Below, piece by piece: positions 3,759-51,605 of a stretch of DNA of 57,054 nt. A program made the position numbers and the translations under genes. Each line of letters opens with the position of its first letter. Positions within the stretch are counted from its first letter, which is position 1. Source of the stretch: Candidatus Spyradocola sp. (lineage in GTDB: Bacteria; Bacillota; Clostridia; Christensenellales; UBA1750); NCBI GenBank assembly GCA_034113365.1, contig JAXEXP010000083.1:1-57054 (forward strand). Direction: 5' to 3'. The notes under the pieces were generated by a model that saw only the letters and a program-made list of their open reading frames with translations, ran no database searches and was not told the DNA's origin.

Positions 3759-3867
3759 GACCTCATCCGTCTCGTGCCGCAGAAGCGTCACGAGCCACCT
3801 TCCCCTGAGAGGGGAAGGCTTTTGGATGCGCGCGTTCCTCCATAGGCTTCCCCTTGAGGGGAAGCTG
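3759..3867. repeat. inverted pair of REP-like family A units (forward variant 3759-3820; truncated reverse copy 3845-3867)
   Basis: ACCTCATC...CCTTCCCCTGAGAGGGGAAGGC and GGCTTCCCCTTGAGGGGAAGCTG match the repeat at 18160, 21218, 33490, 50503. Confidence 0.8.
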
Positions 3868-4165
3868 CAGCCTGTCGACAAAGTCGACAGGCTCGAAAAA
3901 GATGAATACTCATCTTTTTCGAATTGCAGAAAAATTCGCGCACGGCCTTGCCGCACACGAATTTTTCTGTATCGGAAGCGATTTTCCATCTGCCTATGGA
4001 TTAAGAACGGTGGAAACAGAGACTTCGTCCAGCTCATTCTTTCCTAGCGTACAGAAAATCGCTCCTCGGCGGGGTACACGCCCCCGCCTGCGGATTGAAG
4101 ATGAAGGGGCTGCGGCCCCTTCATGCATCCCCGGGGAGCACATGCCTGTTTTTTGACAGGCTGTA
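3866..4165. mobile_element. non-autonomous MITE-like element with terminal inverted repeats
   Basis: left TGCAGCCTGTCGACAAA vs reverse complement of right end TACAGCCTGTCAAAAAA; interior made of stacked hairpins; no convincing ORF. Confidence 0.6.
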
Positions 4166-20261: not shown

Positions 20262-21082
20262 GCGTTCGATCCCTCCTTCGGTAGATTTGCGCCATAGTCC
20301 AGCCAGGCTTGGATCATGGCGCTGGCGATGGCAATGGACTGCGGGCCGCGGGGCAGCTCGTCGCGGGAGAACCAGCGGGCGTCGGCCAGCTCCTCCTGTT
20401 GGATGCGGATGGGCTCGCGCTCGTCGGCCTGGGCGAAGAAGCCCACCATGTGGGTGTCGGTAAAGGGCCAGGGCTGGTTGCCGAAGTATTGCAGGTTGGT
20501 CAGGTGCAGGCCGGTCTCCTCCAGCGCCTCGCGGCGGACGGCCTGCTCGAGGCTCTCGCCGATCTCGAGATACCCGGCGATGCAGGAGTAGAAGCCGCCC
20601 ACGAAGCGGCGGCCCTGCGCGAGCATCAGCTTGTCCGCGCCGTTGTGGATGAGCACGATGACGGCGGGCGAGATGCGCGGGTAGACGGTGTTGCTGCAGG
20701 AGGGGCAGGTCATGGCGCGCTCGGTGGCGCTATGGGTCATGGGCGCGCCGCAGCGTCCGCAGAAGCGGGTGTTGCGGTACCAATCCCAGAGGTGCTGCGC
20801 GGTGCCGCCGAGGAATGCCAGCGGCTGGGGCAGGCTGCGCAGTGCGCGGTGGGGCTGGCGCTGGGCGTAAAGCGGGGGCTGGTCGGCGAGGAACACGGCG
20901 CGGCCGTCGTAGTCGAACAGGTACTGGAAGGCGGTATCGGTGGGGTAGTCGGCGCAGGTCGGGAAGGCGTTGTCCCGGAGGTAGACGCCCTTGGGGTCGA
21001 AGTACAGCGCCAAGTCGCTGCGCTGCGGGGCGCGGGGGGAATAGGCGTTGGACAGCACGTGCGGTGCGATGTCGTGCAGCAT
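20258..21082 (-). CDS. nudC: NAD(H) pyrophosphatase NudC
   Basis: FCGRCG..CPSC zinc finger, YPRISP, Nudix box GESLEQAVRREALEETGL, NQPWPF. Confidence 0.92.
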   Translation of the reverse strand: MLHDIAPHVLSNAYSPRAPQRSDLALYFDPKGVYLRDNAFPTCADYPTDTAFQYLFDYDGRAVFLADQPPLYAQRQPHRALRSLPQPLAFLGGTAQHLWDWYRNTRFCGRCGAPMTHSATERAMTCPSCSNTVYPRISPAVIVLIHNGADKLMLAQGRRFVGGFYSCIAGYLEIGESLEQAVRREALEETGLHLTNLQYFGNQPWPFTDTHMVGFFAQADEREPIRIQQEELADARWFSRDELPRGPQSIAIASAMIQAWLDYGANLPKEGSNA

Positions 21083-21187
21083 AGGAACTCCTTGTTTTTT
21101 GCGAGAGAACAATGTCTCTTCTTCATTTGTATTGGATACGAAAAAGATACAGCTTGGGGCATCGAAGCGGGGCTTGGGGCTGTTTTG

Positions 21188-21267
21188 GTGCGTCTGGGGG
21201 TGGGGTGGCAGTTTACGGACACCTCATCAGTCGCCTGCGGGCGACAGCTTCCCCTCAAGGGGAAGCC
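21188..21267 (+). repeat. REP-like family A unit (core 21218-21267)
   Basis: one-base variant of the 18160 core. Confidence 0.9.
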
Positions 21268-21465
21268 GTAGGGTGCGCATTGCTGCTGACTGCATGAGTT
21301 GGCTGTTTATGCTGAACAATGAACGTTCACCATGCAAAAAGGTGGTGTTAGAACTGCATGTGATGTGATCCCTTGCGGCCGGGGTTGGGGTGCGGTGACG
21401 GGTGCTTCATCGGTCGCCTGCAAAAGGAAGGATGAGGCACATAGCCCGGATTCGCGCTTCCTTAA

Positions 21466-21755
21466 GGCTCCCCTTGAGGGTTTACCCAGAGGGGCGAAGC
21501 CCTGAAGGTCGAGCGTGTCGGAATAAACAGTCCGGTGGACTGACCTACGGAGGGGCGCAGCCCTGAAGCATGAGCGTTTCGGAGGGAACAGTCCTGTGGA
21601 CTGTTGCCGGAGAATAAGCCATGTGGAACACCGGAGCAGTCCAAAGGACTGATTCGGTGCGCAGATAGATGAAGCCGACCGGAACACCGGAACAGTCCGA
21701 AGGACTGTTTCGGTGCGGAGCGGGGAGCTGCCGGCCTTCGGCCGGCGGAAGGGTG
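21466..21755. mobile_element. nested composite: reverse REP A split by element B' (21481-21542 + 21665-21720), itself split by element B (21546-21664)
   Basis: internal duplication of GGAGGGGCGNAGCCCTGAAG and GGAACACCGGA..CAGTCC..GGACTG..TCGGTGCG; homologous to 30801-30923 and 50326-50453. Confidence 0.75.
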
Positions 21756-21815
21756 GCGCTGCAGCTCTGCCAAACGGATAATGACGTCAGTGGCTCAACA
21801 TGAAGTCCAAGGGGA

Positions 21816-23171
21816 TCATTTCAGGAAAAAGCGGAGGAGCTTTTCCTTTTTCTTCGTATAGGGGTGGTAGCGGATGGGCAGGTCCAGGAAGGTGGACTTG
21901 TCCAGCACGCTCTTTTCGTGGGAGAAGGTGTCGAAGGAGCGCTTGCCGTGGTAGGCGCCCATGCCGGACGCGCCCACGCCGCCAAAGCCCATGTGGGTGG
22001 TGGCCAGGTGCACCACGGTGTCGTTGACGCAGCCGCCGCCAAAGGACAGGCGGCGCAGCACCTCGCGCTGGGCGGGCTTGGACTCGGTGAACAGGTAGAG
22101 CGCGAGCGGCTTTTCGTCGCCGCGGACGAAGGCGATCATGTCCTCGAGGGTGTCCATGGGGAGGATGGGCAGGATGGGGCCGAAGATCTCCTCCTGCATT
22201 GCGGGGGCGGTGCGGTCGCGCACCTCGATGAGGGTGGGCTCGATGCGCAGGCCGTCGGTTTGCCCGCCGGCGAGGATCTGGGCGCCGTCCAGCAGGGCGG
22301 TCAGGCGCTGGGCGTGTTTTTCATTGATGATGTGGGGGTATTCGGGGCTTTGCAGCGGGTGCTCGCCCAGAAAAAGCGCGATGTACTTGCGCATGGCGGC
22401 GACGAGGGCGTCCTTTGCGCCGCGCTGCACCAGCACATAGTCGGGCGCGACGCAGGTCTGGCCGGAATTGAGCAGCTTGCCGAACACGATGCGCTTGGCG
22501 GCCAGGTCGATCTTGGCGTCGTCCAGCACGAGCACGGGGCTCTTGCCGCCCAGCTCGAGGGAGACGGGAGTGAGGAACTGCGCAGCCTTTTCCATCACGA
22601 GGCGGCCGACGGTCTTGCCGCCGGTGAAGAAGATGTAGTCAAAGCGGGTGTCGAGCAGCGCGGCGTTTTCGGCGCGGCCGCCCTGCACCACGCGCACCAG
22701 CTCGCGCGGCAGGCAGTCGCTGAGCAGGCGCTCCATGGCCTTGGCGGTGTGGGGCGCGTAGTTGGAGGGCTTGAGCACGACGCAGTTGCCCGCGGCGATG
22801 GCGCCGATGAGCGGCTCGAGTGACAGCTGCAGCGGGTAGTTCCACGGGGCCATGACCAGCACCAGGCCGTAGGGCTCGCGGTAGATGCGCGAGACGGCGT
22901 GGAACTGCGCCAGCGGCGTGCGCACGCGGCGGGGCCTGGCCCAACGCCGGAGGTGGCGGATCTGGCAGCGCAGCTCGTCGAGCACCAGGCCGACCTCGGT
23001 CATGTAGCCCTCCATGGGGGCCTTGCCAAGGTCCAGCTCCAGCGCGGCGAGCAGCTCCGCCTCGTGGCGGACGATGCCCTGCTGCAAGGCGCGCAGCCAG
23101 CCCAGCCGCGCGTCTGGATCCAGCGTATTGCCTGCGTCAAAGAAGGCGCGCATGTGCGAAAAATCCATCAT
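21816..23171 (-). CDS. aldehyde dehydrogenase (ALDH3-like)
   Basis: APWNYP, FFTGG, LELGGKSP, SGQTCVAPDY, EEIFGP. Confidence 0.95.
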   Translation of the reverse strand: MMDFSHMRAFFDAGNTLDPDARLGWLRALQQGIVRHEAELLAALELDLGKAPMEGYMTEVGLVLDELRCQIRHLRRWARPRRVRTPLAQFHAVSRIYREPYGLVLVMAPWNYPLQLSLEPLIGAIAAGNCVVLKPSNYAPHTAKAMERLLSDCLPRELVRVVQGGRAENAALLDTRFDYIFFTGGKTVGRLVMEKAAQFLTPVSLELGGKSPVLVLDDAKIDLAAKRIVFGKLLNSGQTCVAPDYVLVQRGAKDALVAAMRKYIALFLGEHPLQSPEYPHIINEKHAQRLTALLDGAQILAGGQTDGLRIEPTLIEVRDRTAPAMQEEIFGPILPILPMDTLEDMIAFVRGDEKPLALYLFTESKPAQREVLRRLSFGGGCVNDTVVHLATTHMGFGGVGASGMGAYHGKRSFDTFSHEKSVLDKSTFLDLPIRYHPYTKKKEKLLRFFLK

Positions 23172-30785: not shown

Positions 30786-30955
30786 AGCTTCCCCTTGAGG
30801 TTCACCCGGAGGGGCAAAGCCCTGAAGCATGAGCGTTTCGGAATGAACAGTCCTGTGGACTGTTTATGGAGAATAAGCCATGCGGAACACCGGAGCAGTC
30901 GGAACGGCTGGTTCGGTGCGGAGGGTGAAGTGCCGCCTTGGGCGGCGATAGGGTG
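30786..30955. mobile_element. reverse REP A variant split by element B (30801-30923)
   Basis: AGCTTCCCCTTGAGG | B | GGTGAAGTGCCGCC-TTG-GGCGGCGATAGGGTG. Confidence 0.75.
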
Positions 30956-30992
30956 AGCCTGTTGGACGTCGCGCTGCAACACCGCCCTGTGG

Positions 30993-50075: not shown

Positions 50076-50260
50076 AAACTCACCCCCATAAATAGGAATT
50101 AGCGAAGAGTGAAGAGTCGGAGTTCGTTTGGGTTGGATTTTTCCCAAAAACGCCTTGTGCCGCAGTACCCGCTGATGGGGGGCTGCGGTAGAGGTACATA
50201 CTAATATAGTTTTATCCAAATATGACCGTTGCTGCCTAACGCCCTGCGAATCGGCGTTTC

Positions 50261-50555
50261 TGTGCGTCTGGGGCTGGGCTGGTGCTTGGCAGACGCCTCA
50301 TCAGTCGCCTGCGGGCGTCAGCTTACTGCGCACCGAACCAGCCGTTCCGGCTGTTCCGGTGTTCCGCATGGCTTATTCTCCATAAGCGCTCCACAGGAGC
50401 CCTTATTCCGAAACGCTCATGCTTCATTCAGGGCTTCGCCCCCTCCGTGTAAACCCTCAAGGGGAAGCCAGGGGACTTCTGGGGGTGGGAGGGCGCTCGG
50501 CTGACACCTCATCAGTCGCTGCGGCGACAGCTTCCCCTCAAGGGGAAGCCAAAGG
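50261..50555. mobile_element. REP A split by element B (50326-50453, minus orientation) followed by an intact REP A (50503-50550)
   Basis: GACGCCTCATCAGTCGCC..CAGCTT | B | CCCTCAAGGGGAAGCC next to an uninterrupted copy. Confidence 0.8.
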
Positions 50556-50590
50556 TTGTGCGCCGTTCATACTCTACCGAGGTTGATCAG

Positions 50591-51060
50591 TTAGGTGACA
50601 GGGATGCCCAGCTCCTTGCGCAGCGCGGTCAGGCGGGGCAGCTCGTGGGGCGGGGGCGGCGCGGTGGGGTCGGAAAAGGCGTGCTGGAGCGCGTCGGCGT
50701 CGATGAGCGCCTCGGCAGCGGCGCGTGGCGGCCCGCCTTGTCGCTGTGGCAGGCGATGGCGGCGCAGACCGCGTCGATCTCCTGCGCGGAAAAGACGCCG
50801 GTTTGCTCGAGGAACGGCCGCGCCATGGCGGCGCTGCGGGCGGCGTGGTCGGTGCTGTCCAGCGTGGCGTAGAAGGCCATGTCGTGCAGCAGCCCTGCTG
50901 TGGCGGCGAGCTCCGCGTCCAGCCCGCGGCGGGCGGCGAGCAGCGCGCAGGCCTGCGACACGCCATGGAGGTGGGCAAAGCCGTGCAGGCGCTCGGCTTC
51001 GTCGGGGACGTTGGAAAGCAGCTTATCGATGCCGCGCTGCACGGAGGCGATGCGGGTCAT
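50591..51060 (-). pseudogene. HD-domain protein with a 1-nt frameshift near 50716
   Basis: HLHGV, GLLHD, DHA, CHSDK, then the frame shifts; the alternative frame gives EALIDADALQH...ELGIPVT-stop at 50591. Confidence 0.7.
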
Positions 51061-51071
51061 GTTCTTTCACC

Positions 51072-51605
51072 TCACAAGTCGTAGGCGACCAGCTCGCAGT
51101 TGTCCGCGAGGTAGTCGAAGAACTCGTCGCCCGTCATGCTGACGAAATAGCTGCGGATGGCGCGGCTGACGGCGCCGTGGCAGACGAGCAGCACGTCCTG
51201 CTGTGCGTCCCGCAGCTCGTCCAGCAGCGAATAGACGCGGTGCACCACGTCGAACGCGCTCTCGCCGCCGCCCTGGCGCAGCGGGGCCTGACGGCGCTGC
51301 GCCCGGAACGTGGGCTCTAAGCGGCTCGTGCCGTCGAACGCGCCGAAGTCCTGCTCAGCAATGCGGGCGTCGATCTCGATGGGCAGTTCGATGCCGGACG
51401 TCTCCAGCAGGAAAAACGCCGTCTGGCGGGCGCGGGTAAGGGGCGAAGCGATGACGCGGTCGAGGTGCAGGCCGCGGAGCTGCTCGGCGGTGGCTCTGGC
51501 CTGCGCAACGCCGGTGTCATCCAGTGGGACGTCTGCCCGGCCGCAGACGCGGTTCTGGGCGTTCCACGGCGTCTGGCCGTGGCGGATGACGTAGAGCTTA
51601 GCCAT
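51072..51605 (-). CDS. histidine phosphatase family protein
   Basis: IRHGQT, SPLTRARQTA, EQDFG, LVCHG. Confidence 0.9.
   Translation of the reverse strand: MAKLYVIRHGQTPWNAQNRVCGRADVPLDDTGVAQARATAEQLRGLHLDRVIASPLTRARQTAFFLLETSGIELPIEIDARIAEQDFGAFDGTSRLEPTFRAQRRQAPLRQGGGESAFDVVHRVYSLLDELRDAQQDVLLVCHGAVSRAIRSYFVSMTGDEFFDYLADNCELVAYDL

Follow-up and report, generated by a model that had tools for sequence, protein, structure and literature searches.

We analysed a 57,054-nt stretch of DNA from Candidatus Spyradocola sp. (contig JAXEXP010000083.1, forward strand; hereafter the window) and found that three of its loci carry copies of a small structured repeat, which we call B. B is a real, discrete repeat with a core of about 117 nt, running from CGGAGGGG to GGTGCGNAG, and it represents a new family of the same general kind as repetitive extragenic palindromes (REPs), bacterial interspersed mosaic elements (BIMEs), BOX elements and MITEs (miniature inverted-repeat transposable elements), with a hairpin-homing habit. 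On balance, we lean towards reading B as a selfish, non-coding, non-autonomous interspersed element that inserts in or after hairpins and is also carried along as a passenger. The window is contig C83 of genome G000 (2.87 Mb in 175 contigs, 93% complete), and the sequencing runs that contain it were labelled as pig-gut metagenomes. Small structured repeats have been well studied in proteobacteria and streptococci, and hardly in gut Clostridia; among open-access papers and preprints, we found nothing relevant on such repeats in Christensenellales or Christensenellaceae.

The solo copy at 30801..30923 was used as the reference copy for all searches. In G000, blastn gave 109 high-scoring segment pairs with B, and an nhmmer profile built from 58 full-length copies gave 110 matches that grouped in 76 loci, numbers well in excess of chance. 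The copies were dispersed over at least 60 contigs and were not arranged in cassette arrays. With a covariance model of B (R1; matches counted at E≤1e-5), B was present in six of the eight genomes of one Christensenellales genus (G000–G007) at 0 to 84 copies each: 84 in G000, 69 in G002, 36 in G007, 26 in G003, 5 in each of G004 and G005, and 0 in G001 and G006. R1 gave zero matches in 12 genomes from 8 other genera of the family and, with stricter filters, zero matches in a further 150 genomes of the order, drawn from 95 genera. No B was detected in IMG/VR viral contigs by pattern scan or in plasmid and phage records by blastn. An earlier prediction made from the sequence alone (hereafter the original prediction) had placed copies of B at 30801-30923 and, reversed, at 50326-50453, and both were recovered by nhmmer, blastn and R1. 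It had also matched B to no named family, in accord with the Rfam searches: the whole window gave 0 matches at the gathering score, and positions 21100-21830 searched at E≤10 gave chance-level matches alone, far under the gathering scores.

Inspection of the flanks of 63–91 copies revealed no terminal inverted repeats (TIRs), regular target-site duplication (TSD) or conserved open reading frame (ORF), as had been predicted. The two ends of B are not inverted repeats of each other, a possible AAGCTG repeat at the ends was seen just in the class of copies that follow an intact host hairpin H1 (described below), and no fixed 4–5-nt target word was noticed 5' of B. The predicted 5' boundary had to be moved. 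Homology between copies in different contexts begins at position 7 (CGGAGG) and ends at about 121–123, so that the TTCACC part belongs to the host context and not to B.

The three-hairpin fold of B was strongly supported by an alignment of 60 copies (23 from G000, 19 from G002 and 18 from G007). It comprises Ha, a short hairpin with a GNA-type loop near the 5' end; a long, irregular arm that consists of stem S, a GC/GC step and hairpin Hb; and Hc, a 14-bp hairpin with a GAA loop at the 3' end. Pairing was found in 89.2% of 2502 cells compared with 36–44% when the partners were slid, changes on both sides had occurred in 32 of the 42 base pairs, and the covariation score was 0.488 against at most 0.087, a value reached by 0 of 500 shuffles. 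The variants of stem S were compensated (GCATG/CATGC, GGTCG/CGACC, GGGCG/CGCCC and GTCCG/CGGAC); a compensated switch of this stem splits the copies into an alpha (GCATG/CATGC) and a beta (GGTCG/CGACC) subfamily, and G007 adds the form GGGCG/CGCCC. The unpaired linkers GAGCGTTT, AATAAGCC and GGAACACCGG and the terminal GGTGCG were conserved in the three species. Some copies of G002, G003 and G005 have no more than a short Hb, so the Hb arm has the character of an expansion segment. In the lower 7 bp of Hb (B positions 39–45 and 65–71), about 70 copies that were otherwise 85–95% alike carried at least 12 different stem sequences, hypervariable yet complementary. The upper hairpin, AAACAGTCC-NGT-GGACTGTTT, is conserved and has the look of an addition made inside an older hairpin.

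The fold was also asymmetric between the strands. Among the mismatches, G·T and T·G together numbered 122 and A·C and C·A 13, while G·A and A·G together numbered 101 and C·T and T·C 7. The plus strand of the nested locus in the window folded at -76.4 kcal/mol (z -7.8) and its minus strand at -63.5 kcal/mol (z -5.25). Because the plus strand folds better and the mismatches are strand-asymmetric, the fold is maintained on one strand of a single-stranded nucleic acid, and this strand specificity means that a single-stranded form of B matters. The loops of B and of its host repeats were mostly C-GNA-G triloops (GCGAAGC, CCGCAGG, CCGAAGG and CGGAACG). Such triloops form unusually stable mini-hairpins in DNA, and their prevalence hints, weakly, at a greater importance of the DNA form than of the RNA form.

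To place B relative to genes, we predicted ORFs with a crude caller, which gave 2447 genes spanning 87% of G000. The 61 placeable B arrays lay between convergent genes in 22 cases, co-directional genes in 33 and divergent genes in 6, compared with a background of 316, 1603 and 353, respectively; B thus prefers the 3' ends of genes. Between co-directional genes, B was co-oriented with them in 15 cases and opposed in 18. This lack of orientation bias counts against an mRNA element that acts in cis and does not support targeting of the lagging strand, gene direction being a mere proxy for replication direction in this test. A lagging-strand, single-stranded DNA transposon of the IS200/IS605 type is expected to show an orientation bias.

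These results bear on the possibility that B is a multi-copy functional structured RNA, either a small RNA or a cis-acting element, whose fold is under selection for the benefit of the host and whose spread is secondary. The very strong covariation and the linkers conserved in three species would suit such an RNA, as would the tolerance of G·U pairs on one strand alone, an RNA fold z of -7.6 and the position of several G007 copies just downstream of terminators and co-oriented with them. We nevertheless regard a functional RNA as unlikely, since the copy number ranges from 0 to 84 among congeneric species, gene orientation was not biased, no promoter-like site was found in 21000-21900, and the Rfam searches were negative. 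Furthermore, the sense strand of B at the first window locus is antisense to the operon it interrupts, and nested, truncated and permuted copies were common.

Several comparisons indicated that B is a unit of its own. In pairs of copies 92–98% identical to each other, homology stopped at the core and the flanks were unrelated. A solo copy (C79:6543) and a tandem copy (C101:30905) were 98.3% identical over 115 nt with the homology confined to the core, and the solo copy at 30801 was 95.7% identical over 117 nt to the inner copies of two nests (C94:4408 and C24:10072) with unrelated flanks. A nested copy (C7:3425) and a tandem copy (C102:64521) likewise shared core homology in different contexts. 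The occupancy of B loci is lineage-specific. At an orthologous copy of another hairpin repeat (host 2), whose flanking genes are 88–90% identical, B lies between the two hairpins in G004 (on contig C24 of that genome) and is lacking at C17:38622-38889 in G000.

The sequence called REP in the original prediction is just the first hairpin (H1, GCTTCCCC-TTGA-GGGGAAGC) of a two-hairpin repeat of 110–130 nt, which we call the host repeat. Its consensus, derived from 57 aligned empty copies, reads ...ACGGTGCGCATCCTTTG-H1-T-GTCGCC-CGCA-GGCGAC-TGATGAGGTGTCCGTCAAGCACC...CCCCAGACGCACC, and the second hairpin (H2) covaries between subtypes. By blastn, the host repeat was found in G000 and in three copies in G004, and in no other genome of the genus; four empty copies lie within the window, including those at 21170-21295 and 50478-50563. 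The architecture of the filled loci is a left host part, B in n copies (n = 0–3, plus nests) and a right host part, with 43 solo, 7 double and 1 triple arrangements and at least 57 empty host repeats. The 5' ends of 91 B copies in G000 were located within the 3' arm of H1 (CCCCTTGAGGG followed by TTCAC...) in 45 cases, after an intact H1 in 8, after the Hb hairpin of an outer B in 13 (nests), after the Hc hairpin of a preceding module in 12 (tandems) and at a contig end in 1. The remaining 12 were mostly in or after other hairpin-type repeats, namely H1 variants, the stem GCTTTTCT...AGAAAAGC of a third repeat (host 3) and host 2. In host 3, B occurred in both orientations relative to the asymmetric flanks. 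At four G000 loci (C130:4837, C166:16122, C64:9789 and C31:1223), B lay, in either orientation, within a long inverted repeat, CCATCCATGCTCTTCTTTTGCGCAGCTTTTCT...AGAAAAGCTGCGCAAAGAAAGGCATGGATGG, an arrangement that might have come about by independent insertions or by inversion between the arms.

The hosts of B differed in the sister species. In G002, the host hairpin was another one, GGCTCCCC-TGTA-[B]-GGGGGGAGC, with B in its loop, and B also lay between GGGGGGAGC-GAA-GCTCCCCCC hairpins. In G007, B lay in unique DNA without a REP host, with ends ATG(G/A)AGGG... and ...GGTGCG(M)AAT, and it often began 4–14 nt past a terminator or another GC-rich hairpin. B is not one fixed REP+B composite with identical junctions, the arrangement that had been named as fatal to the prediction: it occurs in different hosts, stands hostless in G007 and has varying junctions.

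B also nests in itself. The parse predicted for 21466-21755, with a left REP part, the 5' half of one B copy, a complete B, the 3' half of the first copy and a right REP part, was reproduced by nhmmer, which returned the two halves and the full copy. Nests of this make, counted as a 5' half followed by a full copy, were found at 13 loci of G000, on different contigs and with distinct sequences. The inner copy of the window nest is 98.4% identical to the inner copy at C77:17813 and sits in the predicted place, the AACAGTCC-GGT-GGACTG hairpin of the outer copy; in G000, the insertion point was always directly after the GGACTG of Hb. The inner copies were alpha in all nests but one, and the outer copies were mostly beta. 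In 8 of the 10 nests with two halves, the outer strands of stem S matched, with one nest non-matching (C45) and one ambiguous (C101). The outer copy resumed with (T/A)(C/T)AGA(A/T)GAAGCC, and this odd resumption, GAAGAAGCC or GATGAAGCC, was common to all nests; the composite may have originated once and then spread. When a tree was built from the outer halves, the nests were not united in it (8 changes were needed, and the starred branches forced at least 3); we distrusted this tree because Hc tips have been reshuffled between lineages.

G002 contained five nests that were built differently. Their inner copies were of the short-Hb type with S = GCTCG/CGAGC, insertion had occurred 3–5 nt past the loop of the outer Hb, the outer copy resumed with G(N)AAAATAAGCC, and the outer S strands matched in all 4 complete nests. 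The G002 nests clearly represent events separate from the G000 nests, and, because they are differently made, nesting in the Hb hairpin arose more than once. It is highly improbable that the nests are assembly artefacts produced by chimeric joins of repeats in a short-read metagenome bin. The assembly is indeed split into 175 contigs, and 15 of the 76 B arrays touch contig ends, so that B elements in practice break metagenome assemblies; however, the 13 G000 nests lie on different contigs with distinct variants and unique flanks, two paralogous nests share 94% identity over 304 nt, and five equivalent loci occur in an independently assembled sister species (G002).

Under the reading we favour, B would have spread to many copies inside a single genus of gut Christensenellales. 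Each new copy would come to lie in the loop or the 3' arm of a hairpin already present, or a few bases beyond its 3' foot. The targets would range from the abundant two-hairpin host repeat and further repeats of hairpin type to intrinsic terminators, the ends of other B copies and the Hb of B itself. Such targets would give rise to the tandem and Russian-doll arrangements. An embedded B would then travel as a passenger whenever its host repeat or the whole composite was copied. The active form may be single-stranded DNA that folds during replication or transfer, rather than RNA, and a trans-acting, structure-specific enzyme may insert it.

A number of observations weigh against this reading. 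In the nests, the outer copy is not cleanly interrupted, since its 3' stem strand lacks about 7 nt, and in the C45 nest the two outer halves do not match. Filled and empty host 2 sites likewise differ by slightly more than a clean insertion. The types of junction are heterogeneous across the B 5' ends, and the orientation of B relative to co-directional genes showed no bias. The copies are old (median pairwise identity 77%, nearest-neighbour median 92.7%), and ongoing movement of B was not observed, no strain of the same species being available for comparison; a scan of metagenome contigs with the neighbouring NUDIX protein gave nothing closer than 67% amino acid identity. The orientation of B was constant within H1 hosts, which argues against a pure picture of B jumping alone. 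The nest at 21462-21765 and its counterpart at C77:17734-18036 are 94% identical over 304 nt, both host flanks included, so composites are also copied whole. Deleted B derivatives exist, and the half-modules X (5') and Y (3') are found singly as well as arrayed (X X, Y Y, X F Y Y and X F Y F; in G002, arrays of Y).

The last four of these points, together with the heterogeneous junctions and the age of the copies, count towards a possible, though less probable, explanation in which B is an internal module of a BIME- or BOX-type composite, comparable to boxB. The composite would be what moves, and the variable counts, the tandem forms, the nests and the shuffling would arise, with no B inserting, by replication slippage, template switching at hairpins and recombination between short motifs held in common. 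Host repeats with 0 (at least 57 copies), 1, 2 or 3 B units suit this explanation, as do the many pairs whose homology reaches 20–110 nt into the host flanks, the half-modules in G000, G002 and G007, and the recurrence of GAGGGG-like motifs at the H1 loop, the B start and the B end. Alpha and beta copies, moreover, share Hc tip variants, from which it follows that modules recombine. On the other side, B is hostless in G007 and has different hosts in G002, host 2 and host 3; a single B sublineage (95–98% identity) occurs solo, in tandem and nested with homology that ends at the core; B is present in the orthologous host 2 of G004 and missing from that of G000; and alpha-in-beta nests are not expected from slippage within one copy. 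The predicted mobile element that parasitises REPs and itself was partly borne out, as a discrete, hairpin-tied unit that nests in itself in two species, and it has to share the stage with the copying of whole composites.

The search for a mover added to the points on the opposing side. In G000, Y1_Tnp (PF01797), the TnpB zinc-ribbon domain, RVT_1 and IS110 (PF01548) all gave 0 matches. Across the genus, Y1 was confined to G003, where it belongs to an unrelated IS200-like gene of low GC content, and to a fragment in G004, with none in the B-rich G002 and G007; reverse transcriptase (RT) was found in G004 alone and was absent from G000, G002 and G007; and Transposase_20 (PF02371) gave 0 matches in all 8 genomes, which are all fragmented and 85–97% complete, so that a repeated insertion sequence (IS) could be unassembled. 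Long copies with B ends flanking an ORF, which the original prediction had suggested looking for, did not occur among the 110 nhmmer matches. In that prediction, B would recognise its targets by structure and be mobilised in trans; both points stay inferences, and no Y1/REP-associated tyrosine transposase (RAYT), TnpB, RT or IS110 gene co-occurs with B.

We also entertain, as a rather doubtful proposal, that B exemplifies a hairpin-homing class moved not by the known REP-associated enzymes but by a structure-specific process acting on single-stranded DNA (or templated by RNA), which would put a folded unit of about 117 nt into the loop or 3' arm of any suitable hairpin, with either an unrecognised enzyme family or host replication and repair as the agent. 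If true, this would account for B-rich genomes without Y1, TnpB, RT or IS110, and for the growth of hairpins within hairpins (short- versus long-Hb forms, B in B and B in REP). B offers an unusually clean case, with a well-supported three-hairpin fold, a clear strand asymmetry that points to a single-stranded active form, copy numbers that differ between sister species (0 to more than 80) and repeated insertion at hairpins, its own among them. Because none of the transposases behind such behaviour elsewhere is detectable, the spread of REP-like repeats without RAYT is directly testable here, within one genus.

Other mobile genes were rejected as the mover of B. The IS200-like locus of G003 contained no real B match, just 17 bits inside the coding region. 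The rve (four matches), DDE_Tnp_1 (one) and tyrosine recombinase (three) matches of G000 had no informative link to B. A 1.07-kb IS30-family element was found at C48:20-1089 in G000 (transpos_IS30 of NCBIfam, 239.8 bits; HTH_38 and rve domains), with imperfect inverted repeats of about 24 nt at its ends. It lies in the host repeat between H1 and H2, with GGGGAAGCTG to its left and CCGCTGTCGCC to its right (3 of 3 left and 2 of 2 right junctions), further junctions being found at the contig ends of C67, C161 and C140, and its insertion point is the same spot as that of the B class found after an intact H1. This IS30-family element is a REP-targeting IS. As a mover of B it was dismissed, since it occurs in G000 alone among the 8 genomes of the genus and its ends are unrelated to B.

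We compared B with known repeats. The BIME/BOX pattern, in which modules follow a regular order with a variable internal count, is found in B, a likeness of architecture and not of homology. In the portions of Croucher et al. 2011 (PMC3049150) consulted, BOX of Streptococcus is built of boxA, a variable number of boxB and boxC, and the likeness to B lies in the variable count (0 to several) of an internal module between fixed end modules and in the largely independent folding of that module. The same portions describe boxB of S. suis as flanked by different pairs of end modules, as B is by different host hairpins in each species; they give BOX IS-resembling TIRs and treat it as a MITE, whereas B has no TIRs. 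Unlike BOX, B is free of end modules in G007 and nests in its own hairpin, and no sequence relation between the two emerged from the Rfam search, in which no BOX model as such was run. REPs and BIMEs, according to the sections consulted of Bertels & Rainey 2011 (PMC3116915), are GC-rich extragenic hairpins in about 100 copies with compensatory changes in their stems, as in B, and they and the REPIN-RAYT systems (REPIN, a REP doublet that forms a hairpin) resemble B in being old, vertically inherited and genus-restricted.

The unit of the REPIN/REP-RAYT systems is a palindrome or inverted doublet of 20–40 nt, whereas B has 117–123 nt, three hairpins and conserved linkers; no RAYT (Y1 HUH) gene was found in the three B-rich genomes. 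Further sources on REP/RAYT systems include Ton-Hoang 2012 (PMC3333891) and Nunvar 2010 (PMC2817692). Palindrome-associated transposable elements (PATEs), which derive from IS200/IS605, have no TIRs, make no target duplication, carry hairpins near their ends and follow a single-strand logic. B shares with them the lack of TIRs and TSD and the hairpins near the ends (Ha at the 5' end and Hc at the 3' end), and differs in that no Y1 or TnpB domain was found in G000 and that its orientation relative to co-directional genes, a proxy for replication direction, was not biased. Enterobacterial repetitive intergenic consensus (ERIC) elements have insertions at fixed internal points of a structured repeat, and small hairpin repeats of cyanobacteria are reportedly nested within one another (Elhai et al. 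2008). B is not a classical MITE, as it lacks TIRs from a parent IS and a fixed TSD. Group II introns of class C have domains of several hundred nucleotides and an RT; B has about 120 nt and no Rfam intron match. Integron attC sites, which have R''/L''-L'/R' boxes with GTTRRRY at the 3' end and form arrays beside intI, are conserved in structure and strand-specific, and B copies are dispersed rather than arranged in cassette arrays, no attC model having been run.

REP-targeting ISs, as the consulted part of Tobes & Pareja 2006 (PMC1525189) describes them, are mobile DNA that inserts specifically into REP hairpins, and the G000 IS30-family element occupies the same host repeat as B. The consulted part of Pares-Guillen et al. 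2025 (PMC12288879) presents ssr9 of ISPpu9 as a small non-coding module that circularises by itself and, by means of an IS110-family transposase, colonises REPs on its own, and calls it "selfish". No IS110-family transposase was found in the 8 genus genomes, and the copy numbers of B are far above those of ssr9.

The features of the window loci are listed in Table 1. The prediction that B sits at the same point of the REP at all three loci held for the left junction, which is identical (CCCCTTGAGG(G) followed by TT(T/C)AC), and failed for the right junctions, which differ. They read CGGGGAGC at 21721 and a degenerate form, GGTGAAGT, at 30924; at 50325 the 3' arm has been lost and the junction reads TAAGCTG.

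Table 1. B copies and host repeat parts in the window (window coordinates)
Feature	Positions	Strand	Basis
Left part of host repeat, GGCTCCCC subtype: 5' arm and loop of H1 (GGCTCCCC-TTGA-GG)	21466..21480	+	homology to C77:17734-18036 begins at 21462
Outer B copy, 5' part X, beta (S = GGTCG): Ha, 5' S strand, upper Hb AACAGTCC-GGT-GGACTG	21481..21542	+	nhmmer 21482-21542, model 2-62; alignment of 13 nests
Inner complete B, alpha (S = GCATG/CATGT), after GGACTG of outer Hb	21543..21664	+	nhmmer 21544-21663, model 3-122; R1 21542-21664, 115.5 bits
Outer B copy, 3' part Y: linker ATAGATGAAGCC, 3' S strand CGACC, Hc to GGTGCGGAG	21665..21720	+	nhmmer 21670-21719, model 73-122
Right part of host repeat: 3' arm of H1 CGGGGAGC, hairpin GCCGGCC-TTCG-GCCGGC, tail GGAAGGGTGG	21721..21765	+	C77 homology stops at 21765
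Left part of host repeat at second locus, AGCTTCCCC-TTGA-GG	30787..30800	+	
Solo B, alpha	30801..30923	+	R1 123.9 bits
Degenerate right part of host repeat: GGTGAAGT, hairpin GCCGCC-TTGG-GCGGC, tail GATAGGGTG	30924..30960	+	
Solo B, alpha, with variant Hb tip GGGCTCC-TGT-GGAGCGC	50326..50453	-	R1 110.6 bits
Right part of host repeat after third-locus B: TAAGCTG, hairpin GACGCC-CGCA-GGCGAC, CTGATGAGG, tail; 3' arm of H1 missing	50256..50325	-	
Left part of host repeat before third-locus B, GGCTTCCCC-TTGA-GGG	50454..50476	-	
Empty host repeat without B: H1, H2, CTGATGAGGTG, tail	21170..21295	-	
Empty host repeat adjoining a filled one	50478..50563	-	

At the first locus, a block of about 715 nt (21100-21815) separates the genes for an aldehyde dehydrogenase and a NUDIX hydrolase, both on the minus strand, and the B sense strand there is the antisense strand mentioned above. 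The block is absent in G004, G003, G001, G006 and G002, in which the two genes are 0–33 nt apart. B elements also expand operon spacers, here to about 715 nt between co-transcribed-looking genes that lie next to each other in relatives. The spacer at the second locus is 286 nt long in G000 compared with 88 nt in G004. The intergenic DNA at the three window loci was too diverged from G004 for a base-precise alignment of empty sites.

Besides the nested composite, the block at 21100-21815 contains the empty host repeat, a degenerate host-like stretch (about 21380-21440) and about 300 nt that are unique within the genome. The spacer of the third B (50082-51076) is about 995 nt long in G000 and about 150 nt in G004, and it holds a possible small gene (50629-51060, minus strand) without a counterpart at the G004 site. 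The host tail CTGATGAGGTG (for example, 21205-21235, minus strand) includes CUGAUGA, a hammerhead core word. A hammerhead reading of the host-repeat sequence CTGATGAG was rejected, as it had no Rfam match and the strands of the three-way junction do not fit. H1 was also joined to other modules, at window positions 3846-3935 and at C39:1246, C68:10250, C50:9176 and C47. One such partner consists of CAGCCTGTCGACAAAGTCGACAGGCTCG followed by the terminator-like AAAAAGATGAAT..CATCTTTTT, and another of CAGCCTGTCAAAAAACAGGC followed by host 2 hairpins. The joining of H1 to several modules indicates a wider set of interchangeable hairpin modules in this genome.

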